From Acidobacteriota bacterium (lineage in GTDB: Bacteria > Acidobacteriota > Aminicenantia > Aminicenantales > Saccharicenantaceae), in assembly GCA_033549365.1 (NCBI GenBank), contig JAWSUF010000007.1, positions 19,154 to 83,153 on the forward strand: DNA of 64,000 nucleotides, written 5' to 3'. The first letter of the stretch is position 1, and each line of letters opens with the position of its first letter. The notes below the pieces were generated by a model, which did no database searches, was not told the DNA's origin, and worked only from the letters and a program-made list of their open reading frames with translations. Position numbers and translations under genes: made by a program. Of the stretch, positions 1 through 17,330 are shown in pieces.

Positions 1-672
1 TCCTCTGTCGTTAACCGTCTCGAAAACTTTTAGGGCGTTTGTAAGGGATGGGGTAATGATGCGGATCAGTTTTACCCGCTTGGTAAAGGTGGCATAGAAT
101 AGCTTGAGCTTCTTTGGTGAAGAATCGCAATTGATTCTCAAAAAATCGCAAATATCCTGATAAGCAGACCGGATGCGTTTGACTGAAATGGTGTTTTCGG
201 CGATTTCTTCCAGATGAGCAGGATCATCGACTATCTTTTTTAAGATCCCCTTGCTATCATCATACTGAAGAACTAATCGGTGTCTAAAATCCTCTTCACC
301 ATAGTCGTTTATCGATGCAAACGCGATTTGGCTGAGCAAGGTACTGTGTGGTTCTTCGTTAATCTCTTTCAGTAAATCGCGGATAGCACACAGCACCAGA
401 TAAATACTTGTCATCCGCTGCTGACCATCAATAAGGCTAAATGTTCCATCATCCGCCCTACATACGACAATGCTGCCCAAAAAATACTCGGTTCCCTTTA
501 TAATAATTCCATCTTCATCATAAAATTCATCAAGCACATCCTGGAGCAGCTTCTCAACCTGTTCACGTTCCCAGACAAATTCACGCTGGAAATCGGGAAC
601 AGTGTAAAAATCTTTATACAGATCTTCGATGGACAGATCTTTTGACTCGATTTTCACGCTCTCCTGGGTCAT
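1..672 (-). CDS. DUF262-domain protein (GmrSD-like N-terminal / ParB-like NTPase domain), 3'-truncated by the window edge
   Basis: Absent from the ORF track because it runs off the window. Manual translation from the ATG at 672..670 gives MTQESVKIESKDLSIEDLYKDFYTVPDFQREFVWEREQVEKLL...SLIDGQQRMTSIYLVL...KVFETVNDRG. The DGQQR and FExxNxRG motifs are typical of DUF262. The frame stays open to base 1. Its start forms an ATGA overlap with the stop of the upstream methyltransferase gene (669..672). Confidence 0.8.
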   Translation of the reverse strand, partial: MTQESVKIESKDLSIEDLYKDFYTVPDFQREFVWEREQVEKLLQDVLDEFYDEDGIIIKGTEYFLGSIVVCRADDGTFSLIDGQQRMTSIYLVLCAIRDLLKEINEEPHSTLLSQIAFASINDYGEEDFRHRLVLQYDDSKGILKKIVDDPAHLEEIAENTISVKRIRSAYQDICDFLRINCDSSPKKLKLFYATFTKRVKLIRIITPSLTNALKVFETVNDRG

Positions 673-3600
673 TTTAGGCTCTCCACAATCGGTGTTAATC
701 GGTCGTATTCCTCAAGGCATTTGCGCTTGGACATGAACTCGCCGAAGGCTTTTTTCTCTTTCTTTTTAAGCACCGGAAAGGTTTCCAGGATGTAGGCGAA
801 ATCATCGCGTGAAAGGCCGTAAAGGTGAGCCACGTAGGCGTCGATTTCGGCTCGAAGCTGTGCCCTGTCGCCGGTGTCTCGTCGGTCGGGCATGCGGTCG
901 TGCACGCCGCAATGGGGTCCCCATTCTGGTGTTAGATTTTTGGCTCCGTCCCGCAGGCGTTTTCGGATTTCCTGTTCATGAGCAGGACCGTAGGCATCGA
1001 TTGGGGCTGATGGCGGATACCAGAAAGTTTGAGACTGCCAGCTGGTTGAAAAGGTCTTCTCCCAGAGCGCATAAAAATCATCTTTCACACAAATAAGTCT
1101 AAGTGCACGAGCAATTAAGAAGGAGTCGCCAGCGAGCATTGTCAAAGGTAATGGTAACTGCTCAATGTGGAAAATATTTACATTAGATGTTGTCCGAAAG
1201 CGTATACAAAAATCGAGGACATGCGAATTTAATATCGCCAGTATTGTAAGAACAGGTAATGAATTTATTTGCTGTGTATTGATATTAATGCATGTGCACT
1301 TTACTTCACATAGATACTGCCGAGGAATAATGGTGGCAATTAGTGTCCTTTCATTTGTTGCGGCAGCAACTCCACGAAAACAAAGCCGGTAGTGAGAGGG
1401 ACCTCTCCTTGGTAAATTGTGATATTTCTTTTTTGCCAGATCCGCTGCGTTGTTTTCCTCTACCCAAAATCTTGGCTCGCTAAAATAAGGATCAAATTGC
1501 CATATGTTTTTCCCTTCCCATAGCGGAAGGCCCTTACTTTCAGTGTTCAGAATAGAAGCATCTGATGTAACATTCAGTTCCTGGTAGATATCTATCTGTT
1601 TATAACTCCCTATGATCTCACCATTTTCGTAACATTTTGAAAGTATATCAATGGAGCGAGCATCCTCTACTTCGAGTGGTGTTAGGGTGCTTGGAGAGAA
1701 CCTACGAATTTGGTCAAGGGTCATTGTTATAGATATCGAGTCGATAGCAGGCAATCGCTCAGGATTATGTTTCATGAAGGCGCACTTGAACCGGTCCGTT
1801 TCCCCACCTTTTTGTGTGCCGAAGGTGACGAACTTAAAGCGACCATCCACTGCGCTAAAAACAGTGGGCCACCGGTTTTCAAAGCAGTACAGAAACTCTA
1901 TTTGGCTGCTACCAAAAAACCGTTGTCGCAATGGCTGGCACCCTTGGTCTGTATAAAGTCCGCTCGGCACCACGATCCCCATGCGACCGCTGTTTTTCAA
2001 AATAGCGAAGAAACGTTCGAGGAAGGCTTTGTAAAGATCAATCTTCCCTTTCTGAAGAGATGTATATGCCTCGGGCTCTTTGAAATAAGCTGAAGCATCC
2101 TTAAATCCCGCCTCATATTTCTGCCACCTTTCAACTATAATCGGATGTTGCCTGTGTAGTTTATTAATGACCTTCAATGCTTCCTGTTTTTTATATTTTC
2201 TGAAATCCGGATCATAAGTGACATAGAATTCCTGAGTATTTGGTTGCAGTACGTCCCAGGGTGGATTGCCGACCGTCGCCGAGAATCCTCCCACTCCGTT
2301 AAGGCCGAATACGTCGGGAAACTCCAGAGGCCAGTGATAAAAATGGTGCCATTTTCGATATGCCTTTACCGTTTCCAGAATCTCAGGCAGCGCAGGATTC
2401 AGGGTGTTGGCTACAGACATCCCCTTTGCGAGCCGCTCAAATATGTCCTTGTAATCATCAGTCTGGATTTCCAGGTCCATCAGGTAAGCCGTAAAAAGAT
2501 CGGCCAAGGGGCGCAAATGAGACGTCGCATCGAGCGCTTCATCCAACACGGCTTTCTGGCTGTCCGTGTCGTCCTCATCGATCTGGGTGATGGACGCAAT
2601 ACCCTGTCCAGCCTCGGCCAGGGCAGAGGAAAGGTCGTTGTAGTCAAACAGCAGCCTTTGCTGGTCTTTCCTTTTAGTGCTCTCCTTCCTACGTTCCGGA
2701 ATGGAAGCGAGCTGATCGAGTGATCGAATGCCGATCAGGCTGTTGCCGCAGCGGACGTGGTGGTCAAGAAAGGTCAGCTTGTGTTCGATGGCAAAACAGT
2801 TGAGCCAAAGAGACAGTTTGGCCAGGTTAACGGCCAGAGGATTAAGGTCGACTCCGTAAATACAGTGGCGGGTGATGCGACGCCGCCAGTCATTGGGCCA
2901 GCTGGAGACTGAAACCCGCATTCCTTTGACATGGGGCACCTCTTCAAGCAGGGCGACCACTAGGCCAGCCATCTGGTTAGCTGCGTCCACCAAAAAGTGT
3001 CCGCTTCCCATTGCCGGATCGCAGACCTTGAATTCCAGCACTTCCTCTTCGACAAAACGTTCGACCAGCGCTGAGGCGGCTTGTGCCGCCCCGCGGCGGG
3101 TGCCTACATCGTGTCCTTTCCGCGCCTGCTCCAACAGCTCGTCGAACCGATTTCGATAATCCTGCTCAAATTTTTGGTTAAGCGGTTGGACGATGGTTTT
3201 TTCGTTGAGAAAACGTACCAGCGCCTCAGGCGTGTAATACGAGCCAGTTTGTTTACGTTCCAGTGCGGATTCACCGAAATAGACATCCCCCTTTTTGATC
3301 AGGGTGTCACCCTGTTTTTTAGATGTCTGGGAAGCCAACAGCATCTCCACACCCTTCTTGGTGCGGCGGCGGATGCGGTCGGCATCGGCAAGCAGGACTG
3401 TGTACTCCAGGATGTTCTCGTAAAGCTCCCCAAGGTGACGAACCTCAAGGTCTTCATAGGGTATGGCGTACTCTCCGTCCGGCTCGTTGTTGTACGGTTC
3501 GACAAATGCCAGCAGGTAAAGCGCTCGGCACATAAAATCGTTGCGCAGCTGATGTTGACCCAGGAACGGCTCCTCTTCGTCATCGAAGAGGCCGCCGTTG

Positions 3601-4601
3601 TAGCCCATGATGCCGTATTCCGGGTCACCGTCATTCACGGCGTTTATCAACCCTTTGAGATGCTTCCACAAATCATACTGATCCGTTTCGTGGCGTTCAC
3701 CCCAGCGAAATTTGCGAGCCTCCTTGCAGAGTGTTTGGATGGAGTGCCGCTGGTAGAGATCAGCTTTTTCCGGGTCCGAGGGCAGCAGTCGCCGGGCCTC
3801 GGCATAAAACAGGAACAGGCAGCGGTAAATCAGCTTGACGGCACTCTCGAAGATTTCCGCCCTTTCTTCCTCAGTGTACTCTTCGCCGCTTTTTTGGGTG
3901 TCAAAAATGAAACCGTTGCAGATGTACTGCAGGACCTCGTCCACCTGGGCAAGAAAAGGTGTCTTGACGCTGTCTTCAAGCACTTGCTCTGATTGTTCCC
4001 GGTCGCGGTCGAGCCTGCACTTGTAAACGCCGACGGATTCATCCTGCTGTCCAACCTCGGCATCATCAACGTCCTCTGCAATGAAAGAAATTTTGTGAAA
4101 GAATCGCTCGAAAAGGCCATATTCAGCCTCATCCGATCCTTCCAGCGCCTGCTCTAAGGGCAGTTCCACGTAATCTTCATAGGGTCTTGAACTCTTGGTG
4201 GAGTAAAGCCGCCAAAGGGCACCGTTTGTCAGGATTCCCCAGTTGAGCTTACGTTCCCTGAGCTGCGCCAGAAGCTTGGCGGGGTAAAAGCTTCCGACGG
4301 ATGTGTTGTCTATATATGATCCAGGCGGCGCAAGATAGAGCACTCCAATGCAGTTTTTAAACCCCCAGTCTTCAAAAAGCGGGTAAACGCCCGGAGCGAT
4401 GGGATTGCCGGGAGGGACGAACTCGAGATAGCTCAACGCCTGTTTCAAGAAAGATTCCCACAGGGACTCGGTGTCCTGGGAATTCCGGGACCGCCACGTC
4501 TGAGCCAGGGTCGCCATGCGGCCCTGTGCGGCATCGTCGAGTTTGACGACGTCTTTCAATTCCTCAATAAAAAGCGAGCTGAACAGGCCGTTATTCTTCA
4601 T
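669..4601 (-). CDS. Large (1310 aa) gamma-class N6-adenine DNA methyltransferase, PglX / Eco57I / type IIG-like
   Basis: SAM-binding motif I, VCDPAMGSGHFLVDA, is encoded at about 3001-3027. Catalytic motif IV, GNPPWD, is at about 2256-2267. IYGVDLNPLAVNLAKLSLWL lies between them. The N-terminal module contains WGILTNGALWRLY, typical of PglX/type IIG N-termini, but I see no clear PD-(D/E)xK triad. A long C-terminal region is TRD-like. Confidence 0.85.
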   Translation of the reverse strand: MKNNGLFSSLFIEELKDVVKLDDAAQGRMATLAQTWRSRNSQDTESLWESFLKQALSYLEFVPPGNPIAPGVYPLFEDWGFKNCIGVLYLAPPGSYIDNTSVGSFYPAKLLAQLRERKLNWGILTNGALWRLYSTKSSRPYEDYVELPLEQALEGSDEAEYGLFERFFHKISFIAEDVDDAEVGQQDESVGVYKCRLDRDREQSEQVLEDSVKTPFLAQVDEVLQYICNGFIFDTQKSGEEYTEEERAEIFESAVKLIYRCLFLFYAEARRLLPSDPEKADLYQRHSIQTLCKEARKFRWGERHETDQYDLWKHLKGLINAVNDGDPEYGIMGYNGGLFDDEEEPFLGQHQLRNDFMCRALYLLAFVEPYNNEPDGEYAIPYEDLEVRHLGELYENILEYTVLLADADRIRRRTKKGVEMLLASQTSKKQGDTLIKKGDVYFGESALERKQTGSYYTPEALVRFLNEKTIVQPLNQKFEQDYRNRFDELLEQARKGHDVGTRRGAAQAASALVERFVEEEVLEFKVCDPAMGSGHFLVDAANQMAGLVVALLEEVPHVKGMRVSVSSWPNDWRRRITRHCIYGVDLNPLAVNLAKLSLWLNCFAIEHKLTFLDHHVRCGNSLIGIRSLDQLASIPERRKESTKRKDQQRLLFDYNDLSSALAEAGQGIASITQIDEDDTDSQKAVLDEALDATSHLRPLADLFTAYLMDLEIQTDDYKDIFERLAKGMSVANTLNPALPEILETVKAYRKWHHFYHWPLEFPDVFGLNGVGGFSATVGNPPWDVLQPNTQEFYVTYDPDFRKYKKQEALKVINKLHRQHPIIVERWQKYEAGFKDASAYFKEPEAYTSLQKGKIDLYKAFLERFFAILKNSGRMGIVVPSGLYTDQGCQPLRQRFFGSSQIEFLYCFENRWPTVFSAVDGRFKFVTFGTQKGGETDRFKCAFMKHNPERLPAIDSISITMTLDQIRRFSPSTLTPLEVEDARSIDILSKCYENGEIIGSYKQIDIYQELNVTSDASILNTESKGLPLWEGKNIWQFDPYFSEPRFWVEENNAADLAKKKYHNLPRRGPSHYRLCFRGVAAATNERTLIATIIPRQYLCEVKCTCININTQQINSLPVLTILAILNSHVLDFCIRFRTTSNVNIFHIEQLPLPLTMLAGDSFLIARALRLICVKDDFYALWEKTFSTSWQSQTFWYPPSAPIDAYGPAHEQEIRKRLRDGAKNLTPEWGPHCGVHDRMPDRRDTGDRAQLRAEIDAYVAHLYGLSRDDFAYILETFPVLKKKEKKAFGEFMSKRKCLEEYDRLTPIVESLK

Positions 4602-5062
4602 AGTGCCAGGGTCTCCTTCTGATCGACCACGAATGTGTACTGACGATAGCGTCGGAATTCACGGGTCGCGATAATCTTGTCGTATTGAAGAACGAATAAC
4701 AGGCAGGGCTTCTGGTTCCAGGTTTCCACACGGGTGGTGAACTGTTCGACGCTGTTTGCCTGGCCGGACCAGGTGGCCTTGAGAAACTCGATGCCTGAGA
4801 CGATTAAAACAGGGGCCTTGTCATACCTTTTCAAGAAATCGAAAAGGTTTGGAATCAGGAACTGGCCGATCTTGTTGCCGAGGTTTACGTCCTGAGCGAA
4901 AAGCTCCAGCAGATCAAGATGTTCGGAATCAGTCTGGCGAGCCAACTCTGTAGCCCACTCTTTTTGGCCCTCGTACTCATGGGTCAGAACGATGCAAGCC
5001 CGACCGCGGGGGCGGGAGGGCAGGGATCTCACAAGTAGAACCATGTTGACAGGATCGCTCAT
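4598..5062 (-). CDS. Small operon protein (154 aa), possibly BrxF-like with a degenerate P-loop
   Basis: It has 4-bp ATGA overlaps with both neighbouring genes. The layout (beta-strand IVLTHEYEG where a Walker A would sit, and APVLIVSGIEFL where a Walker B would sit) recalls BREX-3 BrxF. No intact GxxGxGK[ST] is present. The family assignment is from memory and unverified. Confidence 0.5.
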   Translation of the reverse strand: MSDPVNMVLLVRSLPSRPRGRACIVLTHEYEGQKEWATELARQTDSEHLDLLELFAQDVNLGNKIGQFLIPNLFDFLKRYDKAPVLIVSGIEFLKATWSGQANSVEQFTTRVETWNQKPCLLFVLQYDKIIATREFRRYRQYTFVVDQKETLAL

Positions 5063-6453
5063 TGAAAAATGCCTCCCGGTGATTGCTCGCTGTCTTCACG
5101 CGGCTCGCGGTCTTCAAAATGGGCGGACAAAAAACTGAGCGCCGAGAGGCCCGGCTTGAGACGAATTTGATCGAGGTTGTGGGTGGTTTCGTACCGCAGC
5201 CAGCCACGTTCGTGAAGCCCTTCGATCTGTTGCCGGAACGATGCGGCATCAAGCCCGAAAACCATGGCTGGGGAGCCAGGTGTTGCCGCCATCTCACTAA
5301 CCTGGAAAAGATGGGTGCCTTTTGCAGCACAGAAATCATAAATCATGGCACTTATTACAAGAGGCGAAAATTGTGTGTAACGGCGACGGTAGAGGCATTC
5401 GTCCGACGTACGCTGCAAAATCTCTAAGTTTTTAAGATTTTGTTCAATGTAGGCATCGACAACAAAACGAACCTCTTCGTAAAGCCCCTTGCTGATTGTC
5501 CTCTTGCCGTATTTCCCTGCCAAATCGCTTCTGAGACGTTCAGTCCACTCTTCCTGTGTCATTGCCGATGCTTGAGTCAGCAGGTGATTGAATATTTCAA
5601 ACCAGATCAGATTGCGAAAAGAGCCGGCACCGACGTAGTGACACCACTCCAGTGATCCTGTCTTTTCAATGAAAATATCATGTTCTGCAAAGAGTAATCC
5701 TGTCGGCGTCAACACCTGATTTCCCGGCTTAATCAATCCCATCGCCGCGCCAATGCTGATCAAGCTTTCAACTTGTCGATCCGCAAGCCCAGTGTCTTCT
5801 TGCAGAACCTTGCGGTTAATTTTCTTCGCCTGTCGATTCTCAAGGAGGAAATGAAGAATCCGAGCAAGTTGATCAAACTCCAGGAGGTAGCCGTTGCTGA
5901 CCTGAAATTTACGCCGAGTGTTTTTTGGAGAGGTAGTATTTTCCTTTGAAGGCCTTGAAGAGGGTGGACTCACGCTACGCTCATTTGTATTTTCAGGAGA
6001 CTCCGGTTTCCGCTCCGCGACAGAGGGACTTACCGATTCCACCTGTTTCTTTTTTTGGGGATTGGAAGACGAGGGGTTCGGTTTTTCTTCATTCGGCAAT
6101 TTTTGAAACAACTTTTGATGTGTTGCTCCTGCTGCCATTTTGGCGGGAGGCGGTTTTGAAATAACAGATCTGATGGCTCCTGTTGCAATGAAATCAGCCA
6201 CTTTGAGCAAAGCGACCGACGATTGTCCTAAGCCTTTCACCTTTGCAAGTTCATCTTGTGAGGCGGACAGGACCTTAGAGAGACTGCCAAAAACCCGTAT
6301 GAGCTCCTCAGCGAGCGGCTTGACATCCTTGCGCCCGATGGCAAAGGTGAGAAGCAGTTCCAGCAACATTTCGTCAGAGTGCGACTCCACATCGCCCGAC
6401 AAAAAGCGATCTCTGAGTCTTTGCCTATGTCCTCTTTTTCTTTTTTCCGTCAT
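5059..6453 (-). CDS. RadC/UPF0758-type N-terminal HhH module fused to a DUF4007-like (wHTH-like) C-terminal domain; no JAB/MPN domain
   Basis: The N-terminus, KRKRGHRQRLRDRFLSGDVESHSDEMLLELLLTFAIGRKDVKPLAEELIRVFGSLSKVLSASQDELAKVKGLGQSSVALLKVADFI, matches the RadC N-terminal HhH pattern. A Ser/Pro/Lys-rich linker follows. The C-terminal pattern (GLADRQVESLISIGAAMGLIKPGNQVLTPTGLLFAEHD...LEWCHYVG...IWFEIFNHLL) resembles DUF4007. It is the first gene of the coupled operon. Confidence 0.6.
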   Translation of the reverse strand: MTEKRKRGHRQRLRDRFLSGDVESHSDEMLLELLLTFAIGRKDVKPLAEELIRVFGSLSKVLSASQDELAKVKGLGQSSVALLKVADFIATGAIRSVISKPPPAKMAAGATHQKLFQKLPNEEKPNPSSSNPQKKKQVESVSPSVAERKPESPENTNERSVSPPSSRPSKENTTSPKNTRRKFQVSNGYLLEFDQLARILHFLLENRQAKKINRKVLQEDTGLADRQVESLISIGAAMGLIKPGNQVLTPTGLLFAEHDIFIEKTGSLEWCHYVGAGSFRNLIWFEIFNHLLTQASAMTQEEWTERLRSDLAGKYGKRTISKGLYEEVRFVVDAYIEQNLKNLEILQRTSDECLYRRRYTQFSPLVISAMIYDFCAAKGTHLFQVSEMAATPGSPAMVFGLDAASFRQQIEGLHERGWLRYETTHNLDQIRLKPGLSALSFLSAHFEDREPREDSEQSPGGIFQ

Positions 6454-6627
6454 GTTGCCCCATTGTTATAGATTGGCCCTATTTTGCTTCTTCTGTTCAT
6501 TTTATGCCACATCATTTTATTTTTGCGAATAACTCATTCTTAAGCTCATCAATGGCTTTATCTGAATTATTGTATTTTCACCAGACCATGTTAAATAACC
6601 CAAACATACTATTTCTCAATGTATGAT

Positions 6628-7587
6628 CTATTCCCTAAATATGTTTCTGTTATGCCATGAAAGAAAATTTCGAGATGGATGATCGATGGGATTGGGCGGC
6701 AAATGAGCAACAGGCCGACCATCAAACGGATAGTATGAACGGCCGTTCTCAAATTCGTCCTTGAGGCGGCGGCTGACTTCGATTCTATATTCCGGCGTAA
6801 TCGTGATGTAGCCGCGGTCGAAGAGACGATGAAAATCGCTTCGGAGAAGTAAGCCGTTCGAAACGGCGTGGGGGCCGCTTTCGGTGTAGGGCTTGATATG
6901 AGCGGCTTCGAGGGCGGGCAAGGAATGCTCTTCGGTAATCGCACAGGCCCGTCGATAGGCATCGGTGACCTGTAACCGAAATGATGCCTGACCAAGGCGG
7001 GGCTTGATCATGGTTTCCTTGCCAAAGCGGGCTCGTTCTTCTTCGATCCGTTGGGCTTCTCTATCAAGGTCATGAATACGGTGGACCTGCCATGCGTGCT
7101 GAAGATTTTTCCAGATAAACTGACCGGCTTCCTTGTCGAGTTCGTAGCCCTTTGCCTTGCCTCGAACAATCGATGCGCTCCATTCGGGGGCAGGAAACCA
7201 CAATGACTCATCAAAAAAGAACGGTTGGGTGAGAATGATACAACCGATCTGAAAATCTTCGTGAGGATTATCCTGAATCCTTCGATATCGGATAAGCCGC
7301 CGGTGCATTTCTGTGTATGAGCCCGCTCCGTTTTGGATTCCAAAATTCTCCCATGCGAAAGAGATCGGAAAAGTTGTGAAATAGAGGAAGACCCCGCCCC
7401 CTGCAATCAGATCACGATTTTCTGTTCTTTGGCTGCGATGCAGCTTGAAGAGGAAAAGGTCCCCCTTGCTGAGGGCGCGAAATTCTGAACTAGGCGATGG
7501 CTGCCAGAAGTTGACCTCGTCGATGCCGGGCTGAGAGCGCAAATAATCGAACCAATCCTGATCTGTGACGCCGGCATAAATCCTCAT
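6628..7587 (-). CDS. HNH endonuclease with an N-terminal PUA/EVE-like domain (putative modification-dependent type IV restriction enzyme)
   Basis: The C-terminal motif LPALEAAHIKPY...SNGLLLRSDFHRLFDRGYITI is of the HNH_2 type. The N-terminus, MRIYAGVTDQDWFDYL...VNFWQPS...GDLFLFKL, is typical of the PUA-like reader domains fused to such nucleases. Confidence 0.75.
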   Translation of the reverse strand: MRIYAGVTDQDWFDYLRSQPGIDEVNFWQPSPSSEFRALSKGDLFLFKLHRSQRTENRDLIAGGGVFLYFTTFPISFAWENFGIQNGAGSYTEMHRRLIRYRRIQDNPHEDFQIGCIILTQPFFFDESLWFPAPEWSASIVRGKAKGYELDKEAGQFIWKNLQHAWQVHRIHDLDREAQRIEEERARFGKETMIKPRLGQASFRLQVTDAYRRACAITEEHSLPALEAAHIKPYTESGPHAVSNGLLLRSDFHRLFDRGYITITPEYRIEVSRRLKDEFENGRSYYPFDGRPVAHLPPNPIDHPSRNFLSWHNRNIFRE

Positions 7588-7712
7588 AGGAAGCCATCCT
7601 GGCTAAAGAGTGTACCGGTATGAGCCATCAGACTCCTTTCTTGCTTTGAGATATTATTATTCAAGCTCATTTTCCCCGTATATCACCTCTCAAGGTGAAC
7701 AGGGGGATGAAT

Positions 7713-9035
7713 TCACAACACCGTATACCCATCATCCTCAACCTCCACTCCCCCTTCCTCCTCCCCCACTCCAAACAACAGCCCTGTGCCATCATCCTCC
7801 TCCCTCCCCCTCCGCTTCTTCACCAGACGCCTCACTCCCACACCGCCTCTCCAGTCCTCCGCCCTCTGGACGGTGAGTTGGCCCTGGGCCGCGGCGTCAT
7901 CGAGCGCCGCAAGCTCAGCGACCTCCTCGCCCTCGACCGTGCTGAGATAGACCCACTGGGCGGCGCGGGCGATGCCCGTGAACAGGAGGCGACGGCGCGT
8001 GTCGAGGGAGAACTTGGCCAGGGCCGCGGCGGTCAGGCGAGGGAGGAGCACGCTGTCGAAGGTCAGGCCCTTGGCCTGGTGGAAGGTCGCGATCTTGGGG
8101 ACAAGGTTTCCGAAGTCGCAGGGGCCGCGGGCGGCGCGGTCCTTGTTTTTGGACACGGCGCGTTCGACCTCGACGCCGCGTTCGGCGAGCGCTCCGGCCA
8201 CGGAGTTCAGCAGGTGGTTTCGGGCGACGATGATGCCGATGCGGTCGTTCTGGACCTGGCGGTGGCGGACGATCTCGGCCAGCCGGTCCATCTCCTGTTC
8301 GGTCGATGCGGCCGTGAAGAAAAGCGGCCGGTCCCGCACCCGCTGCTCGGCCCCGACCTGGGCCAGGTACTGGGAGCGCTTGAGGAGATCGTCGATGAAG
8401 TGGGCGGCCAGGTCGGCCACGTAGGAGGCGTTCCGGTAGGCGCCGAGAAGCGAGACCTGGGGGGCCTCGATGCCGAGCTTTTCACGGATGAACGACGGGT
8501 CGGCGCCGTCGTCGAAGATCCTCTGCTGGGGATCGATGAAGACCGTGACGTGGCGGGCGACGATGCGGAGGATGTCGTAGACGACGGGCGGCAGGTCCTG
8601 GCCCTCGTCGACGAGCACGAACTCCAGGGAGTTGCGGAAGGACGTCTTGCGGCCGACGAGGTCGAGCACCGTGCGGCGGATGAGGTCGAAGTCCGGCTGG
8701 AAGCCGCCGTTGAGGTAGGGCAGGCTGCGGGCGATGTGGCTCCTGTAGAGGGTGACGCACCACATGTCGAAGGTGCTGACCGTCTCGTCGGGAATCTCCA
8801 GAAACTCGAACCCGGAGCGGATGTACTGCTTGACGACGTTCGTGAAGACGAAGACGCGGAAGCGGTCCGGCGGGATGCGGCAGGTGCGGGCGATGTGGTC
8901 GGCGCGGTGGATGAGGATCTGCGTTTTCCCGGAACCGGCGAACCCCATGACGATGCGGTTGAGCGTCGGGGGCATGACGACGGCGCGCCGCTGGTCGAGC
9001 GTCAGGTCCTGCCGGGGGACGAGCCAGGTGATCAT
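7713..9035 (-). CDS. Compact superfamily-1 (UvrD/Rep-like) helicase/ATPase, about 440 aa
   Basis: Walker A GFAGSGKT is encoded at about 8922-8948. Walker B/DEGQD is VLVDEGQD. A late motif, ATFHQAKGLTFDSVLLP, is present. I chose the start MITWLV at 9035 because it forms an ATGA overlap with the stop of the upstream Hsp70-like gene. The Arg-rich 139-aa extension in the track ORF (to 9455) looks like an artefact. Confidence 0.8.
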   Translation of the reverse strand: MITWLVPRQDLTLDQRRAVVMPPTLNRIVMGFAGSGKTQILIHRADHIARTCRIPPDRFRVFVFTNVVKQYIRSGFEFLEIPDETVSTFDMWCVTLYRSHIARSLPYLNGGFQPDFDLIRRTVLDLVGRKTSFRNSLEFVLVDEGQDLPPVVYDILRIVARHVTVFIDPQQRIFDDGADPSFIREKLGIEAPQVSLLGAYRNASYVADLAAHFIDDLLKRSQYLAQVGAEQRVRDRPLFFTAASTEQEMDRLAEIVRHRQVQNDRIGIIVARNHLLNSVAGALAERGVEVERAVSKNKDRAARGPCDFGNLVPKIATFHQAKGLTFDSVLLPRLTAAALAKFSLDTRRRLLFTGIARAAQWVYLSTVEGEEVAELAALDDAAAQGQLTVQRAEDWRGGVGVRRLVKKRRGREEDDGTGLLFGVGEEEGGVEVEDDGYTVL

Positions 9036-11755
9036 GAGGCGCGGCCCTTTCGGGGTTTGCCGGGCGGAGAGTCGGGCGGAGGGCCGGAGTCGGCATAGGC
9101 GTCGGGGCGCGTGACGTCGCCGCGGAGATCGATGCCGGCGCGCCGGCGCTTGCGGAGTTCGGACTCGGCGCGCTTGACCAGGGCGTCGTCGCCGGCCATC
9201 CGGGCGGCCGTTTGCAGCCAGCCCAGCGCCCATTCGTCGAGGACGGGAGGCGGCAGGAAGGCGCGGACGGATGCGGCCGCCAATCGGACCGCCTCGTCCT
9301 GCCGAGCGAGAGAATGGAGGCATACGGCCTTGAAAGCGAGATAGGGCCCGGGATCTTCTTCCTTGAGAAGCGCCCGGTCGATCGTCCTCAGCGCCTCGTC
9401 GTGCAGGCCGCGCTGCCTGAAGTTCATAGCCAGGTTGAAGAGCGGACCACCCCAATAGGGGCTCACCTTGTCGGCTTCGAGAAAGGCCGTTTCGGCCCGT
9501 CGATAGTCGCCGAGTTCGGTGAAGTAAATCCCCTGGAGGTTGAGGATCTCCAAATCAGGCCGGCTGATCCGGCTCTGGGCGGCGCGGAGGTAATCCAGGG
9601 CCTTTTCGTGCTGGTTGAGTTCGGCGTGGAGGCGGGCGAGTTCGATGTAAGTTTCGCGGTCGCGGGCCGTTCCGCCCTTGCGGCGACGGAGGTCCTCTTC
9701 GATCTCCTCGATCTTGACCTGCGTTTCGCCGGGATTGGCGATGTTGACCAGGGGGTTTTCGACGGTTTTTTCGAGGACGGCGGAGGGCGCGCCGGGGGAC
9801 GCGGAGGAGGAGAAGCGGTCGGATGGATCGGAGGAACCGGATCGCGCGGACGGGGCGGAGGCGGCTACGGCGGATGAGGCGGAGGGCGGGTCGATCAGGG
9901 AGGCGCGGCATTCGAACTGCTTTCCGCGCGTCAGGCGGTATTCGAGCTGGAGGGCGTCGCCGGGAGAGACGCCGTCGGGAAGGCGCCAGATCTCGTCGAA
10001 GATGGGCTGGCTGTCGCATTCGCCGACGATCTCGAAGCGGAGCTCGCGGACGGGGCGCGGGGCGTTGAGGGGGACGGCGAGGCGCTCTTTGAGGAACGAG
10101 CCGTCGGCGGGGAAAGGCAGCTCGACGCCCGAGGGGACGAGCGGGTTGAGGCGGCCGTCCGAGGTCACGAGGGCGATCCCGTCGTGGAGGACGGGCCGGA
10201 TGAAGGGGCGGCCGAGGAGGGCCAGGTGGAGGGCGTTCCAGGCAGCGCCGCGGGCGACGCAGAGCTTGGAGTCGAGGCTGTCGTCGTGGAAGACGTGGCG
10301 GGCGGCGGGGAAGAAGGCGAGGAGGGCGGCGCGGACCTGGGGGATGAGGCTGCTTCCGCCGACGGTCAGGCAGAGGTCGACGTCGGAGGGGTCGCGGTCG
10401 GCCCGGTCCATGGCGTCGCGCAGGGGGGCGAAGATCGACTGGGACAGGCGGAATTCCGTGGTGCGGGCAAAGAGAAACTCCGTGTCGAGGAAGGGCGCGA
10501 GGAGCGTTTCGAACGCGGCGGCGGTGAGGGCCGGGCGCGCGAGGGTGTAGGTCGATTTTCCGAGGACGCAGGAGGCGGACGGCTGGCGGACGACGATGGA
10601 GGCGGGGTCGTTGGAGGGGGACGGGGCGCCGGCGCCGGAGCGCGAGTAGCGGCCGAACTTTATTAGGCGGCTGATCTCGGTGGATATGGCGATCTTGAGG
10701 GCTTCGGCCTTTCCGAGAAGCTGGGGCTCGAGGCCTTTTTTCTTTTGGGCGAAGGTCAAGGCCAGGGGGTCGAGGCCGTTTTCCCGGAGAAGCTCCGGGA
10801 TGAGGATGTCGTGGACGATGGCCGCGTCGATGTCGCCTCCGCCGAGCCGGTGATAGCGGGAGACGGAGAGGTGCGAGATCGTGAGGCCGCGGGGGATGTG
10901 GCGGAGGAGAGCCGCGGCTGAAGTATCGGATGGGTCGTCGGATGACGCGTCGGATGGGGCGCGGGAGATCTCGACGACCGAAACGTCGCAGGTTCCGCCC
11001 CCGAAATCGAAGACGACGCAGAGCGCGGGGCGATTAGACGGAAGCTCGAACCCGGGCGAGTCGGGATCGCCTGACTCGCCGCCCGAATAGCCCACCTGGC
11101 TGTTTGTATTGCTTCCGGAGGCCCGGGACGAACCGCCGCCTGATGCGGCGCGGGGCCCCGGGCGCAGTCCACCGGACATGAAAAAGTCGATGAGCGCGGC
11201 CGTGGGCTCGTCGAGAAGGTCGTCGTCGGAGATGCGCAGGCCGGCAAAGCCCGCGGCGAGGAGGGTGTCGCGGCGCTGGTTGAGCATGAAGGAGGCCGGG
11301 ACGGTGACGGCGATGCGGCCGGGAGCTTCGGAATCGAACGGCAATGCGCCGGCGGCGGGGATCGCGGACGCGGCGCCGGCGATGAACCCCAGCACTTTGC
11401 CGGCGATTTTCGAGGCGTGGTTCAGCGGCTCGGAGGCGCGGAAGTAGGTCTTACGGAGGCCCATTTCGTTTTTCGTGTCGTAGAAGAGGGTTTTTTCGAA
11501 CAGCAGGCCGTAGTCGGCCGGGAAGGCGCGGAGGCGCTTGGCCCCCTCCCCCACCCAGAGCGCGCCGTCGGGCAGCACGGCGACGACCGAGGGCACGAGC
11601 GGGCTCGAAAAGACGCCCTCGCGGGTGGGCTGCTCGATCTCGAGGACGCGGACCTCGGGCGGCGCGCCGGAGGCCGGCTCCCAGACGATCTCAGCTGCGG
11701 CCGAGTTGGTCGTCCCCAAGTCGATGCCGAGAACTCGGATTTCGCCGGATTTCAT
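9032..11755 (-). CDS. Hsp70/actin-fold ATPase with low-complexity inserts, an SBD-like beta region and C-terminal TPR repeats (about 907 aa)
   Basis: Motifs seen: VLGIDLGTTNS (phosphate-1), VTVPASF...QRRDTLLAAGFAGL...LDEPTAALI, VVFDFGGGTCDVSVVEI, and LTVGGSSLIPQVR. The C-terminus has TPR-like repeats (HEKALDYLRAAQ..., GDYRRAETAFLEADK..., GLHDEALRTIDRAL). I chose the start MKSGEIRV at 11755 because it is preceded by GGAGGG. Confidence 0.8.
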   Translation of the reverse strand: MKSGEIRVLGIDLGTTNSAAAEIVWEPASGAPPEVRVLEIEQPTREGVFSSPLVPSVVAVLPDGALWVGEGAKRLRAFPADYGLLFEKTLFYDTKNEMGLRKTYFRASEPLNHASKIAGKVLGFIAGAASAIPAAGALPFDSEAPGRIAVTVPASFMLNQRRDTLLAAGFAGLRISDDDLLDEPTAALIDFFMSGGLRPGPRAASGGGSSRASGSNTNSQVGYSGGESGDPDSPGFELPSNRPALCVVFDFGGGTCDVSVVEISRAPSDASSDDPSDTSAAALLRHIPRGLTISHLSVSRYHRLGGGDIDAAIVHDILIPELLRENGLDPLALTFAQKKKGLEPQLLGKAEALKIAISTEISRLIKFGRYSRSGAGAPSPSNDPASIVVRQPSASCVLGKSTYTLARPALTAAAFETLLAPFLDTEFLFARTTEFRLSQSIFAPLRDAMDRADRDPSDVDLCLTVGGSSLIPQVRAALLAFFPAARHVFHDDSLDSKLCVARGAAWNALHLALLGRPFIRPVLHDGIALVTSDGRLNPLVPSGVELPFPADGSFLKERLAVPLNAPRPVRELRFEIVGECDSQPIFDEIWRLPDGVSPGDALQLEYRLTRGKQFECRASLIDPPSASSAVAASAPSARSGSSDPSDRFSSSASPGAPSAVLEKTVENPLVNIANPGETQVKIEEIEEDLRRRKGGTARDRETYIELARLHAELNQHEKALDYLRAAQSRISRPDLEILNLQGIYFTELGDYRRAETAFLEADKVSPYWGGPLFNLAMNFRQRGLHDEALRTIDRALLKEEDPGPYLAFKAVCLHSLARQDEAVRLAAASVRAFLPPPVLDEWALGWLQTAARMAGDDALVKRAESELRKRRRAGIDLRGDVTRPDAYADSGPPPDSPPGKPRKGRAS

Positions 11756-11792
11756 CGCCTTGCCCTCCATGTGCCCATATTTATGCCTTCAT

Positions 11793-13103
11793 TCATGCCT
11801 GCATTGAATTCGCATCCAACAGCCATTTCCAAACCGGCCGGACGAGGACACTCTCACCGTTGAGGGTTCGCGTTTCCTCCTGGTTGTATGTCAGGATGCC
11901 GCCTTTTGTGATGCCGAGCTCGCGCCGCGCTTCGGCGAAGCCGTTCAGTTCGCGCTTTTTGTTGGCCGCGTTGAGCTCCCAGCAGACCTGCCAGGCTTCC
12001 TCGGGACGGTTTCCCCTGCGGACGATGAAATCGCACTCGCCCCGGCCCTTGAAATACATGGGCTTTTCGCGGCGGCGGAAAAGCTCCACTGCGACGGCGT
12101 TTTCCAGCAGGCGGCCCCGGTTTTCGGAAAACGAGCCGCTCAGGAGCGAAAGGCCGGTGTCCACGAGATGGATTTTTTTCGGATTCATCGTGCGTTTCCG
12201 GGGCGAATAATCGAACTTCTCGCAGACCGTCACGAAAAAGGCTTCTTCCAGAAAGCGGAGGTAATTGGCGATGCTTCGCTTGCTCCCGGGAAGGCCGTGG
12301 GCTTTCAGTTGTTTCTCGAACGCGGAGATGGAGAAGACGGACGCATAGCCTTCGAGGAGGTTTCTCATGAGAAGATCGAGCAGATCGCGGGCGCGGATGC
12401 CGTGGCGGTCGAGGATGTCGCGGTAAAACGTCGTGTCGAAATACGTCTGCAGGAGCTTTCGCTTCGCGGGCTCGTCGGCGGCGGCGGCGACCTCGGGAAA
12501 TCCGCCGTATCGCAGGTATTCGTCGAAAGCCCGCAGGACGAGTCCGCTTTCGGGCGTCGAAAGGAGGGCCGGAGACCAGGAGATGCCGCGGAAAGCCAGG
12601 AATTCCCGGAAGGAAAAAGGCAGAATCAGGACGTCTTCGTACCGGCCGCGGAGTTCCGTGGCGATTTCCGAACCGAGAAGCGAGGCGTTGCTTCCGGTCA
12701 CGACGATGGCGTATTTCCGGGTGTTGTGGAGCGTGCGGACGACGCGGCTCCAGGCCGGGAGGCGCTGGATCTCATCGAAGAAAAGCCGGCTGGGCGAGCG
12801 GCCCGTCAGTTGATGGAACGCGGCGAGGAGGCGATCCATGTCCTCGGGGCGGAAGTCGCGGAGCCTGTAGTCCTCGAAATCGACAAAAAGAATGTCTTCG
12901 CGGACGGCCCGGCCGGATTTCAGGAGGCCGGCGGCGAGCTGGTAGAGATAGACGGTTTTTCCGGCGCGGCGCGGGCCGGCGACGGAAAGGACCGGCCGAG
13001 GGGGGTCGAGTGTGGGAACGGGAGCTTCCCGGGGTGTCGACGCGGGGAAGTCCGCGCTCCGGAGCCAGTCGGCGATGACTTTTTGCAGGGCGGTGTTATC
13101 CAT
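11793..13103 (-). CDS. AAA+ ATPase with a DUF4143 domain (COG1373 family)
   Basis: P-loop GPRRAGKT and Walker B ILFVDFEDY/FFDEIQ are present. The length and C-terminal GECDFIV motif are typical of COG1373 ATPases. It ends 37 bp upstream of the Hsp70-like gene on the same strand. Confidence 0.8.
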   Translation of the reverse strand: MDNTALQKVIADWLRSADFPASTPREAPVPTLDPPRPVLSVAGPRRAGKTVYLYQLAAGLLKSGRAVREDILFVDFEDYRLRDFRPEDMDRLLAAFHQLTGRSPSRLFFDEIQRLPAWSRVVRTLHNTRKYAIVVTGSNASLLGSEIATELRGRYEDVLILPFSFREFLAFRGISWSPALLSTPESGLVLRAFDEYLRYGGFPEVAAAADEPAKRKLLQTYFDTTFYRDILDRHGIRARDLLDLLMRNLLEGYASVFSISAFEKQLKAHGLPGSKRSIANYLRFLEEAFFVTVCEKFDYSPRKRTMNPKKIHLVDTGLSLLSGSFSENRGRLLENAVAVELFRRREKPMYFKGRGECDFIVRRGNRPEEAWQVCWELNAANKKRELNGFAEARRELGITKGGILTYNQEETRTLNGESVLVRPVWKWLLDANSMQA

Positions 13104-14303: not shown

Positions 14304-15581
14304 TTATTTTCCTGCTTCCGCCTCCGATTTCAACAGCCGGTACCTGTCCGAGACGATGGCGCCCGCGCCCTCCCGGCCGCCTCGGCCGCTCTCATCCGCC
14401 TTAACAATGCTTCCCGGCGCGCCCTCCCACTCTTCGTCGGTGTCGCCGAAGACGGCGCGCTCCCGGGGTGCTGGGTCGCGGGCGAGATAATCCTTGAATT
14501 CGGCGGCGGTCAGGAGATCGAGGTCACGGAGGGTGCGGAGCATGGCTTGGGCGCTCACGCCGAAGTAGCGCTTGGCGAGAAGGACGTCGTCGAAGGACAG
14601 GCGGCGACCTCCCCCGCTCCCGATCTCCGATTCGACGAAATCGAGGACGCGCAGGGGCGGCATCAGGAAGTGGGCGGCGAACTCCTGGGCGAACTGCTCG
14701 CGTTCGGGGTGAGGGGTGGGCGACCGAGATGCTGCGGGCTCGCCGGCGTCCGCGGGGGCGGCGGCGGATGTTGAGGCGGTGGCGGATTCGGGCGTCACAG
14801 GCGTCGCAGAAGACTCGGGCACGGAATCGGGCAAGGCGGATGCGGCCGAGGATGCAGGCGCCGCGGTTGCGTTATGCGCGCCCGGCTGCGACCCGAGGCC
14901 GCATGCGGCGAAGATCTCGAAGCCGTCGATGACCGGGGCGCTGTGGCGGTCGCGGAGATAATGGCAGTATTCGTGAGCGGCGGTGAAGGCCTGGCGGCAT
15001 ACGGTCTGGGTGGAGTTGATGAGGGCGAAGGAGGCGTCGCGGTCGTCGAGGTGGATGAAGACGCCGGAGACGCAGGCTTCGGCGGGAAGCGGCATGCGGA
15101 GGATGCGGAGACCGCTCCGTTCGAGGAGGGCGAAGATGTCGCGGACGGGCTCGTCGCCGAGGCCCAGGCGGCGGCGCTCTTCGGCGGCCAGGCGGGCGGG
15201 AGTCAGGCGGGCGCCGTTCAATCCGGAGAGCGAGGCGTAGAGCGGGGCGGACGCGAGGCGGCGGCCGGTGAGCTCTTCGAGGCGGAGATAGTCTTCGGCA
15301 TAGCGCTGGAAGGCGGCGAGTTCGTCGCGGATGAGGGAGGCGGGGCCGGCGGCGCGGAAGAGGACGGCGAAGGTCGTCTCGCGGGAGGGCAGGAAATCGC
15401 CCATGTCGCGCTTGAGGAAGGCGGCGATCCGGGAGAGGGTCGTGAGGGAGGGGGCGCGTTTACCGGATTCGAGAAGGGAGATGAACTCAGCGGACAGGCC
15501 CAGGGAGCGGGCAAAGGCCTCCTGGGTGAGGCCCGTCTCTTCGCGGGCCGCCTTGAAGCGCGAGGCGTCGAAATTCCCCAT
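14304..15581 (-). CDS. XRE-family HTH fused to an ImmA/IrrE (COG2856) zinc metallopeptidase domain
   Basis: The N-terminus, GLTQEAFARSLGLSAEFISLLESGKRAPSLTTLSRIAAFL, is an XRE HTH. An HExxH motif, AAHEYCHYL, is present. An Ala/Ser/Pro-rich insert follows. The stop lies 1 nt from the Fic start. Confidence 0.85.
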   Translation of the reverse strand: MGNFDASRFKAAREETGLTQEAFARSLGLSAEFISLLESGKRAPSLTTLSRIAAFLKRDMGDFLPSRETTFAVLFRAAGPASLIRDELAAFQRYAEDYLRLEELTGRRLASAPLYASLSGLNGARLTPARLAAEERRRLGLGDEPVRDIFALLERSGLRILRMPLPAEACVSGVFIHLDDRDASFALINSTQTVCRQAFTAAHEYCHYLRDRHSAPVIDGFEIFAACGLGSQPGAHNATAAPASSAASALPDSVPESSATPVTPESATASTSAAAPADAGEPAASRSPTPHPEREQFAQEFAAHFLMPPLRVLDFVESEIGSGGGRRLSFDDVLLAKRYFGVSAQAMLRTLRDLDLLTAAEFKDYLARDPAPRERAVFGDTDEEWEGAPGSIVKADESGRGGREGAGAIVSDRYRLLKSEAEAGK

Positions 15582-15678
15582 AAGGCATATCCCCGAATCG
15601 GTGAGCCGACTTTAACACCGGGTTAGGAGAAAGTCAATACGGGCGCGCGGATTTTTCCTAGGGTTATTCGGAAGCACC

Positions 15679-16335
15679 TTATGGATTCGTTTTAAACCCC
15701 AGCATGTCCAGGGCAATCGATCGCATATCCTTCTGGAACTGCTGCGCATCCGGCCTGACGATCCAGTGGATCCGGTCGAGAAGGGCCGGGTCGAAACGCT
15801 CCAGCTTTTCGGCGATTTCAGGGGGAAAAATACCCGCTGCCTTGGACTCTGCGGCGCTGAAGATCTCCCGCCAATCCGGACGGATCTTCAGTGCGATTTC
15901 ACGGATATCGGCGACGTCCTTCGGTTCGTCGCGGTCTCTGAGCGCGGGGATCTTGTTGGCCAGAATGTTCAGGGGGTTGTCGATGGCGGAAAACGGCGCG
16001 CCCGGGATTTTTTGCCGTTCCCCCAGGTAAAACGGGACGTCATTCACGAATTCGACCTTAAGAGCCTGTTCGACATCGATCCGGCGGAATCGGTCCTCGT
16101 TGACCATGACGGCAAAAGCGACGGCGTTTTTTCGCAGGGCTGAAAATACGGCCGTCATTTCGCGATCGAAATCGTCGGCGTCGTTGACGAAAAAATCAAG
16201 GTCTTCGGAATAACGATGTTGGTAATAGAACCTGGAAAGGGCCGTCCCGCCCGTCAGATAAAACCCGGTGCCGGCGGTTTCGACGGCGGCCAAGACCTTA
16301 TCTTGAAGCGGATAGAGAGACTTTTCCCAGCACAT
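15679..16335 (-). CDS. Nucleotidyltransferase of the AbiEii/AbiGii toxin family (DUF1814-like)
   Basis: FYLTGGTALSRFYYQHRYSEDLDFFVND matches the GGTAL...HR.S.DxDF pattern of AbiEii-type nucleotidyltransferases. Confidence 0.75.
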   Translation of the reverse strand: MCWEKSLYPLQDKVLAAVETAGTGFYLTGGTALSRFYYQHRYSEDLDFFVNDADDFDREMTAVFSALRKNAVAFAVMVNEDRFRRIDVEQALKVEFVNDVPFYLGERQKIPGAPFSAIDNPLNILANKIPALRDRDEPKDVADIREIALKIRPDWREIFSAAESKAAGIFPPEIAEKLERFDPALLDRIHWIVRPDAQQFQKDMRSIALDMLGFKTNP

Positions 16336-16588
16336 AGTCGATCCCCTTGACCCGCGACCGGCTTCTGATCGAGGGCTTCAAGGCGTCCCAGTCCCGGGCG
16401 ATGCGGTCCAGGCCGACGATTTCGATCAGGTCGTAGTAGTTCATTCCCTCGACGGCCCGGCGGAGCGCCCAGAGGCGGTCAAATCCGGGCGCGCAGTCCT
16501 CTCCATCGAGAATCTTCAGATATTCTTCCGGAGTGATCCGATAGTCCCAAAGGATGCGGCGGATCGCCTCTTTTGCTTTTTCGGTCAT
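16298..16588 (-). CDS. Small partner protein upstream of the AbiEii-like nucleotidyltransferase (putative antitoxin-like)
   Basis: This 96-aa ORF overlaps the nucleotidyltransferase start by 38 bp. The ILWDY...EYLKIL...YYDLIEIVG pattern resembles the small proteins that commonly precede such nucleotidyltransferases. The family is not verified. Confidence 0.55.
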   Translation of the reverse strand: MTEKAKEAIRRILWDYRITPEEYLKILDGEDCAPGFDRLWALRRAVEGMNYYDLIEIVGLDRIARDWDALKPSIRSRSRVKGIDYVLGKVSLSASR

Positions 16589-16683
16589 CGCGCCCTTCCG
16601 ACCGCATTATATCAGCATGCGCGGCTGGAAGAAAGCGGACCTTTCCAATTGACATTTATTTCCCTGAAACCTATAGTTAAGAC

Positions 16684-17019
16684 ATGGTTAGCGATTATAT
16701 GGATAAAGCGGAAGTATTAGAAATCATCGACCGATTTCGGGCTGTTCTCGAGGAAAACGGAATCGGCATCGAGCGCATTGTCCTGTATGGTTCTTATGCC
16801 GCCGGAAGAGAGCATGAAGGGAGCGACATCGATATCGTTGTCATATCCGATGATTTTTCCGGAATGGATTATTGGCAACGGATCGACATGATCTCGGAAG
16901 CCATATACAAAGTCTTCAAGCCGATTGAAGCGATGGCCATGACCTCACGAGAGTGGCGGGAGAGTCGCTCGATAGCCGTTGAGTTGGCCCGGCAGGGAGA
17001 AGTGGTTTTCGCCGCGTAA
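16684..17019 (+). CDS. Minimal nucleotidyltransferase (MNT / Pol-beta superfamily) domain protein
   Basis: LYGSYAAGREHEGSDIDIVVISDDF matches the GSxxxGxxxxxSDIDxxV nucleotidyltransferase motif. No HEPN partner ORF is adjacent. Confidence 0.85.
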   Translation: MVSDYMDKAEVLEIIDRFRAVLEENGIGIERIVLYGSYAAGREHEGSDIDIVVISDDFSGMDYWQRIDMISEAIYKVFKPIEAMAMTSREWRESRSIAVELARQGEVVFAA

Positions 17020-17048
17020 ACCATCGCAGAAGCTCCATTTTGCCGTAT

Positions 17049-17249: not shown

Positions 17250-17266
17250 GACATGAAAGAAGAGAA

Positions 17267-17330
17267 GCGCTTAGAGGCTCATTTCGGGGCCGGAAAATGC
17301 GGCTCTAAGCGAATTCGTTCAGTTTGGCGG
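17267..17330 (+). repeat. Intergenic repeat family, copy D (partial; overlaps the 3' end of the E1-beta gene)
   Basis: CTCATTTCGGGGCCGGAAAATGCGGCTCTAAGCGAATTCGTTCAGTTTGGCGG is similar to the cores of copies A-C. It has an internal hairpin, CGCTTAGAG (17268-17276) paired with CTCTAAGCG (17303-17311). Confidence 0.6.

Follow-up and report, generated by a model that had tools for sequence, protein, structure and literature searches.

Gene content of the locus

The stretch of DNA analysed here, referred to as the window, comprises 64,000 nucleotides (nt) of contig JAWSUF010000007.1 (assembly GCA_033549365.1, positions 19,154 to 83,153, forward strand) from an Acidobacteriota bacterium of the Saccharicenantaceae. 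Three complete genes and an open frame are located on the minus strand at its left end and, with a probability of about 85%, they represent the promoter-proximal half of a six-gene operon of the bacteriophage exclusion (BREX) type, into which an accessory nuclease gene has been inserted. Open reading frame (ORF) calls on the window sequence place the genes as follows, with protein lengths in amino acids (aa):

5059..6453, minus strand: 464 aa, putative BrxA-role protein with DUF4007 and a RadC-type helix-hairpin-helix (HhH) module
4598..5062, minus strand: 154 aa, predicted dead minimal P-loop/AAA+-like protein, BrxF-related
669..4601, minus strand: 1310 aa, gamma-class N6-adenine methyltransferase, predicted PglX role
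1..672, minus strand: N-terminal 224 aa of a type IV enzyme of the GmrSD family (DUF262), cut by the window edge

Consecutive genes are joined by three ATGA stop/start overlaps (5059-5062, 4598-4601 and 669-672), which can be read straight from the sequence. This arrangement had been described in an earlier, sequence-only reading of the same DNA, and both the ORF calls and the sequence confirm it. The same reading had found no PglZ, BrxC or BrxL gene, and tblastn searches likewise detect no homologue of any of the three within the 64-kb window. The absence is most likely an edge effect, because the window ends inside the fourth gene, which is a cargo gene, and relatives carry all three.

Conservation of the operon in relatives

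Gene content, gene order and conservation can be observed directly in related loci. The genes for the DUF4007 protein, the small P-loop protein and the methyltransferase are collinear in 9/9 species-representative genome loci, which span at least six phyla and belong to Desulfosarcina, Planctomycetota, Acidobacteria, Gemmatimonadota, Thiodiazotropha and Arenicellales. Downstream of these three genes, relatives repeatedly encode a protein of about 1347 aa; it has invariant Walker motifs (A, GSYGTGKS; B, FFDEFG) and scores 109-122 bits on the PADLOC model for SspC and 47 bits on that for BrxC, and a search of the Protein Data Bank (PDB) with its profile gave one chance-level match only. In two of the related loci, L020 and L021, the complete order is DUF4007 protein, 154-aa protein, methyltransferase, 1352-aa protein, PglZ (PF08665) and BrxL (BrxL_N, BrxL_ATPase), and the operon is headed by a gene of the HTH_17 family in L020 and not in L021. 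The BrxL proteins of relatives pass the NCBIfam equivalog model TIGR02688 with 433-435 bits at a cutoff of 329.

A metagenome scan anchored on the ATPase yielded 80 loci, in which synteny was scored by tblastn; the denominators given here are the loci that reach far enough to be informative. PglZ directly follows the ATPase in 54/54 loci and BrxL is found downstream in 44/44. The methyltransferase is encoded upstream of the ATPase in 27 of 29 loci, the small P-loop protein upstream of the methyltransferase in all 25, and the DUF4007 protein upstream in all 23, with the core genes all on one strand. The nearest relatives at the DNA level, L097 and L082, are 92% identical to the window over positions 2254-6456, and in L024 the DUF4007 protein, the P-loop protein and the GmrSD protein share 89%, 88% and 97% identity, respectively, with those encoded here. 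All three of these loci possess the ATPase, PglZ and BrxL. By comparison with such relatives, we infer that this genome most likely encodes the ATPase, PglZ and BrxL just past the window edge.

Some of the relatives are found in mobile-element contexts. Genes for ArdC, RadC, DUF3150 and DUF2997 proteins are located upstream of the operon in L001 (1-8600), and a terminase small subunit gene, transposase genes, AbiTii and an integrase gene are nearby in L020 (1-3500 and 18780-24059). The operon of L021 adjoins a CRISPR-Cas locus.

The HhH-DUF4007 protein

The first gene of the operon encodes a two-domain protein. Pfam UPF0758_N is matched at aa 10-79 (28.8 bits, cutoff 27.1) as part of a RadC-type HhH module at aa 10-97 (nt 6163-6426), and Pfam DUF4007 at aa 237-442 (nt 5128-5745; 51.2 bits, cutoff 27). 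A variable Ser/Pro/Lys-rich linker occupies aa ~96-200, and in an alignment of 12 homologues both ends are conserved and this low-complexity linker varies. The NCBIfam RadC profile is covered at positions 1-83 of 218 only (45 bits, cutoff 134), and profile hidden Markov model (HMM) searches revealed no JAB/MPN domain and no Pfam RadC domain. The profile HMMs and the alignment hence bear out the layout described from the sequence by itself: a RadC/UPF0758 HhH module without JAB/MPN, a Ser/Pro/Lys-rich linker and DUF4007.

With PADLOC models, the C-terminal half matches SspB and the C-terminus of BrxP; the BrxP match is confined to model positions 617-773 of 779, that is the DUF4007 part, and the 3'-phosphoadenosine-5'-phosphosulfate (PAPS)-reductase part of BrxP is not matched. 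Searches of the PDB with the sequence and the profile recovered generic HhH domains only and did not reach SspB or BrxA. The DUF4007 domain has been interpreted as a BrxA-like triad of helix-turn-helix (HTH) or winged HTH domains (PMC12839542), and among the structural neighbours of BrxA, SspB ranks next after BrxA's own orthologue (PMC9240713). By this analogy, the protein is inferred to be a BrxA-like DNA binder in which DUF4007 has been fused to an HhH module.

In many relatives, a small protein of 64-71 aa from the excisionase family of HTH proteins (HTH_17) is encoded directly upstream of the DUF4007 gene (L011 4249-4464; L020 3743-3952; L001 8381-8575), and it may be a regulator. The HTH_17 proteins of L011 and L020 score 80-87 bits on the NCBIfam model for MAD1 (cutoff 80) of the methylation-associated defence system (MADS). 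A MADS locus, which this match had suggested, was rejected as no other MAD model was matched, MAD2 reaching 22 bits at a cutoff of 720.

The predicted dead P-loop protein

The 154-aa protein has no direct match to any family among the profile HMMs of Pfam, PADLOC and NCBIfam, the PADLOC model for BrxB included. When 1.84 billion representatives were scanned in full with HMMER, only 67 clusters, all of proteins of ~150-160 aa, made up the family. The protein itself has hundreds of close homologues. Distant members of the family retain the motifs GxxxxGK[ST] and hhhhD, and the protein encoded in the window reads THEYEGQKEW and VSGIEF at these positions. The PADLOC BrxF model is matched by 12/47 family members, with a best E-value of 3.8e-7. 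An AlphaFold model built on a diverse alignment has a predicted local distance difference test (pLDDT) score of 93.8 and replaces a model from a shallow alignment that was unusable (pLDDT 39); it resembles the cores of AAA+ and origin recognition complex (ORC) proteins, the top Foldseek matches being ORC5, FtsH, VCP and Vps4 with a template modelling (TM) score of about 0.44. The sequence-only description of a BrxF-like protein without an intact Walker A motif holds because of this transitive evidence, namely the motifs of distant members, the BrxF matches and the fold. BrxB and BrxF have been interpreted as inactive P-loops of the STAND class (PMC12839542), and the protein is predicted to be a catalytically dead, minimal P-loop/AAA+-like protein that is related to BrxF and takes the BrxB/inactive-STAND role.

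The sequence of this protein is highly conserved, with 78-95% identity among the best 120 clusters and 60-85% across genome loci of several phyla, which contrasts with the published picture of BrxB/BrxF-type dead P-loops as fast-evolving. Such high identity suggests recent horizontal spread or strong constraint; horizontal spread of the operon as a whole is suggested by the 60-85% identity of this protein across distant phyla, mostly in metagenome-assembled genomes. In some loci, an extra ORF of 86-97 aa without a family match is present between the genes for the P-loop protein and the methyltransferase (L001 10462-10722 and L017 10462-10755; also L018 and L019).

The methyltransferase

The 1310-aa protein matches the Pfam families Eco57I methylase (74 bits), MmeI_Mtase and N6_Mtase, and the motifs DPAMGSGHF and GNPPW, which lie in a catalytic core at about nt 2184-3059, are invariant in 16 homologues. 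These families and motifs agree with its earlier designation as a gamma-class N6-adenine methyltransferase, and on sequence grounds it is predicted to fill the PglX role. PADLOC scores are 310 bits for REase_MTase_IIG, 270 bits for DrmMI and 41 bits for PglX, and PDB searches with the sequence and the profile returned no matches. The DrmMI score had suggested class 1 DISARM (defence island system associated with restriction-modification), which was rejected as the loci contain no other Drm gene and no defining helicase.

A degenerate MmeI_N-like domain is situated at the N-terminus (about nt 3852-4601). A sub-threshold MmeI_N match is found there in 6/8 homologues and covers the post-catalytic part only. 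Residue D78 is invariant. At the ExK position of the MmeI D-X9-ExK motif that follows it, the window and most of the 16 homologues have L-Y-L, and E-x-K occurs in none of them (0/16). The sequence-only observation that there is no PD-(D/E)xK triad stands because this position is never E-x-K.

At aa 1000-1200 (nt 1002-1604), pairwise identity falls to 0.29-0.35 vs 0.65-0.82 elsewhere; this hypervariable segment looks like a target-recognition domain (TRD). The 92% DNA identity to L097 and L082 ends sharply at ~2254, just past the NPPW motif, and this break together with the hypervariable segment suggests that the specificity region is exchanged by recombination.

A variable cargo slot

The open frame at the window edge contains the motif DGQQR in its translation and matches Pfam GmrSD_N (DUF262) with 111.8 bits (cutoff 33.2), so that its earlier assignment as a GmrSD-type DUF262 gene running off the window was correct; it also matches the PADLOC models Orf5 and HEC-06. 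The fragment is 96% identical to a 618-aa protein of L011 with both GmrSD_N and GmrSD_C, and 97% identical to the protein of L024. In both loci, the full-length GmrSD gene occupies the same slot and is followed by the ATPase gene, after which PglZ and BrxL are encoded in L024; for L011, the available sequence stops within the ATPase gene.

The related loci differ widely in what separates the methyltransferase gene from the ATPase gene: the slot is empty in 18 loci, with a gap of no more than 168 bp, and contains 0.8-6 kb of other genes in 34. Its occupants include GmrSD, an NsnA-like DUF262 protein with a HEPN-like protein, a Schlafen-AlbA_2/HATPase_c_4 protein, and a C5-methylase with an HhH-GPD protein. 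A DUF262 gene is absent from most related loci, where unrelated genes or nothing take its place, and all loci with a GmrSD gene (L011-13, L022, L024, L025, L042 and L061) run on into the ATPase gene, and also into PglZ and BrxL wherever the sequence reaches that far. The GmrSD gene is variable cargo and not a core gene. The four genes are not conserved as neighbours: the first three keep an invariant order, and the DUF262 gene is an insert for which there are many alternatives.

Most often, the slot is occupied by a protein of 485-504 aa with Schlafen AlbA_2, HATPase_c_4 and Fic-like_C domains, encoded directly before the ATPase gene (L004 14392-15849; L011 12508-14022; L074 8432-9886; and others), which may be semi-core. 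In L001 (Desulfosarcina variabilis; 14744-17734), the slot contains genes for a C5 DNA methylase, an unassigned 344-aa protein and a protein of the HhH-GPD glycosylase family, and the pairing of the C5 methylase with the HhH-GPD protein is unusual inside a BREX-like operon.

Relationship to known BREX types and related systems

On PglX and PglZ, the variant stays below the score cut-offs of all curated BREX subtype models tested, in agreement with the sequence-only statement that no canonical subtype is matched. In functional terms, the operon parallels type 1 BREX (brxA-brxB-brxC-pglX-pglZ-brxL), with which it appears to share all six functional roles, including a gamma-class N6-adenine methyltransferase whose N-terminus is MmeI_N-like and nuclease-dead and whose TRD is variable. 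An accessory type IV enzyme may also accompany type 1 systems, as BrxU does in the pEFER BREX island (PMC8565348). However, the order is A-B-C-X-Z-L in type 1 and A-F-X-C-Z-L here, the BrxA role is taken by DUF1819 there and by the DUF4007-HhH fusion here, and the BrxB role by DUF1788 there and by an orphan family related to BrxF here. The curated type 1 cut-offs are also missed, by the methyltransferase with 58.8 bits vs 500 on the NCBIfam model BREX_1_MTaseX, and by the PglZ of relatives with 18.3 bits vs 270 on the type A model and 25.5 bits vs 400 on the type B model.

By sequence affinity, the operon appears closest to the type-4/Ssp lineage, that is type 4 BREX (brxP-brxC-pglZ-brxL) and SspABCD, whose homologies to each other have been described (PMC12914056, PMC12839542). 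The DUF4007/SspB-like domain, the SspC-like ATPase, a PglZ that is nearest to the model BREX_PglZ_4, and BrxL are all found in this lineage. In contrast, the loci examined contain neither a PAPS reductase (BrxP/SspD) nor the desulfurase SspA, and an adenine methyltransferase is the predicted modifying enzyme instead. Furthermore, the dead P-loop protein is encoded by a separate gene here, whereas it is reported to be fused to PglZ in type 4 (PMC12839542), and the fusion partner of DUF4007 is a RadC-type HhH module here and a PAPS reductase there.

Type 3 BREX (brxF-brxC-pglXI-brxHII-pglZ-brxA) also includes a stand-alone BrxF-type P-loop protein, the likeness being drawn from the transitive matches, but the loci described here lack both the BrxHII helicase and a PglXI methylase of the DUF1156 type, and they do have BrxL. 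The fourth gene resembles BrxU and other GmrSD enzymes in its GmrSD_N domain with DGQQR, in the GmrSD_C domain of its full-length homologues and in its location inside a BREX locus; it differs in that its slot between methyltransferase and ATPase holds other genes elsewhere, and that the comparison is based on the first 224 aa, which the window contains. The DUF499-centred, BREX-related Hma systems combine an ATPase and an N6-methyltransferase with embedded accessory nucleases, and the HEC-06 models match the GmrSD fragment; yet the Swi2/Snf2 helicase and the DUF1156 methylase that Hma requires (PMC12839542) are both absent here. Hma/BR systems, suggested by the HEC-06 matches, were accordingly rejected, as the defining helicase and other genes are lacking.

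No description of this gene combination was found in the literature on DUF4007, DUF6079 and BREX subtypes, and a fusion of HhH with DUF4007 and a type-4-like system with a methyltransferase both go unmentioned in the most comprehensive recent survey of BREX (PMC12839542). The nearest mention is in a study of type 4 systems, in which a dnd cluster of Fischerella located beside brxL, brxZ, sspB and a methyltransferase gene was taken by the authors as incidental (PMC12914056). We regard the operon as an apparently undescribed BREX variant that is widespread in metagenome assemblies, and neither as a defence system of a new kind nor as one without PglZ. With odds only slightly better than even, we suggest that it constitutes a distinct BREX subtype, namely a methylation-based offshoot of the type-4/Ssp lineage in which a type IIG/DrmMI-like methyltransferase replaced the PAPS-reductase module, the dead BrxF-like P-loop was split off, an HhH module was fused to DUF4007, and a dedicated internal slot for interchangeable accessory nucleases evolved.

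Alternative explanations

Several observations weigh against assigning the locus to a six-gene BREX operon. The window stops at base 1 inside the cargo gene, and BrxC, PglZ and BrxL are unobserved in this genome; exact look-ups of the methyltransferase and the small P-loop protein retrieved no record. The ATPase of about 1347 aa matches no Pfam or NCBIfam model, the PglZ of relatives scores best on BREX_PglZ_4 at 44.7-48.6 bits and is still below the cutoff of 140, and the methyltransferase misses the curated BREX_1_MTaseX cutoff and scores far better on type IIG and DrmMI models than on PglX models. Finally, the small upstream HTH gene that is common in relatives was not found in the window by tblastn.

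The sequence-only reading had favoured a self-contained four-gene system, in which a self-marking methyltransferase is paired with a GmrSD-like effector and two adaptor proteins and needs no PglZ, BrxC or BrxL. The translational coupling of all four genes in the window, the recurrence of the methyltransferase-GmrSD junction in L024 and L061, and a 64-kb window devoid of the three BREX genes are what such a system would lead one to expect. However, DUF262 is missing from most related loci, and the loci that have a GmrSD gene still continue into the ATPase gene, as well as into PglZ and BrxL where the sequence reaches. In addition, GmrSD enzymes work on their own and their substrate is modified DNA (PMC8565348), the wrong logic for an effector that is held off by self-methylation. 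The sequence-only reading had itself set out what would refute it, and the stand-alone arrangement fails on the conservation of its neighbours and on the continuation of the operon in relatives; synteny has already largely refuted it, and we consider it very improbable. An even smaller chance is given to the idea that the methyltransferase is a combined nuclease-methylase of type IIG (MmeI/Eco57I-like) whose neighbours are incidental company in a defence island. Its best PADLOC matches are indeed the type IIG models, and weak MmeI_N matches occur at the N-terminus, but these are sub-threshold and restricted to the post-catalytic part, none of the 16 homologues has E-x-K at the ExK position, and incidental neighbours are hard to reconcile with the strict collinearity that the gene keeps with five others across phyla.

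The least probable of the alternatives is a system of the phosphorothioation type (type 4 BREX or Ssp): phosphorothioate (PT) marks would still be installed by the DUF4007 and SspC-like proteins, with the methyltransferase as a passenger. The matches of the first protein to SspB and the BrxP C-terminus, an ATPase that scores higher on SspC than on BrxC, and a PglZ nearest to the type-4 model would all fit. Nonetheless, none of the examined loci contains a gene for a PAPS reductase (BrxP/SspD/DndC) or a cysteine desulfurase, BrxP and BrxC being the minimal set for PT synthesis (PMC12914056), and conservation of the methyltransferase is no less strict than that of the other genes. Set against these alternatives, the BREX-type operon with an inserted accessory nuclease remains the preferred explanation.

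Proposed mechanism

Taken together, the full order in relatives is an often present HTH gene, the DUF4007 protein, the dead P-loop protein, the methyltransferase, a variable cargo slot, the ~1347-aa SspC/BrxC-like ATPase, PglZ and BrxL. All six roles of type I BREX are covered by this set of genes, and we therefore propose methylation of self-DNA and exclusion of unmethylated DNA, all of the biochemistry being modelled on type I BREX. The methyltransferase, together with the ATPase, PglZ and the small P-loop protein, would place an N6-methyladenine mark on host DNA within a short asymmetric motif, which would be set by the hypervariable segment of the methyltransferase. The same complex, with the HhH-DUF4007 protein as a possible DNA-scanning module, would recognise incoming DNA that lacks the mark, and PglZ and BrxL would block the replication of this DNA. 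The PglZ nuclease is metal-dependent and forms complexes with BrxB (PMC12205998). The GmrSD enzyme would be an independent cargo equivalent to BrxU and would cut phage DNA with modified cytosines that escapes the methylation-reading system; BrxU working beside BREX has been documented (PMC8565348).

If this proposal is true, the two modification chemistries of the BREX/Ssp world would be linked, as one scaffold, made up of DUF4007, an SspC-like ATPase, PglZ and BrxL, would work either with a phosphorothioation enzyme, as in type 4, or with an adenine methyltransferase, and the role of the scaffold would be experimentally separable from the mark. The combination of a highly conserved core, a hypervariable methyltransferase segment and a swappable slot would also offer a natural system for studying BREX specificity and the exchange of back-up effectors. 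Four of the six core proteins have no curated name today, and such loci are therefore probably under-called.

Surroundings of the operon

The operon is located in a region of low guanine-plus-cytosine (GC) content at the left end of the window. According to the composition profile, GC amounts to 45-52% in region 1-8000 and to 57-68% across the remaining window, and this drop therefore indicates an acquired island, whose right edge lies at ~7.6-7.7 kb. A tRNA scan found no tRNA gene as an island insertion site, and a promoter/terminator scan upstream of the DUF4007 gene was uninformative, with 2 promoter-like sites vs 1.8 expected. The remaining features in and beside the island are as follows:

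1..7700, no strand: low-GC island, defined from the composition profile and the sequence
6628..7587, minus strand: 319-aa protein with C-terminal HNH_2 domain, 175 bp upstream of the DUF4007 gene
7716-9095, minus strand: UvrD-like helicase, in the high-GC DNA beside the island
9035-11770, minus strand: Hsp70-like protein of 912 aa with tetratricopeptide repeats (TPR), its ORF overlapping the longest frame of the helicase gene
11796-13103, minus strand: AAA_14/DUF4143 ATPase, in the high-GC DNA beside the island

The 319-aa protein matches Pfam HNH_2 and, over its C-terminal half only, the NCBIfam model PT-DNA_restrict (78.7 bits vs a cutoff of 180); its N-terminal domain of 170 aa has no Pfam match. 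The gene takes the position where relatives have the small HTH gene, and a counterpart was found near a single other locus, L071, among the related loci. It is outside the conserved operon and probably encodes an independent nuclease that shares the low-GC island, which may be a modification-dependent nuclease. Beyond the island, in the high-GC DNA, the three minus-strand genes at 7716-13103 for the helicase, the Hsp70-like protein and the AAA_14 ATPase could be a further defence cluster.

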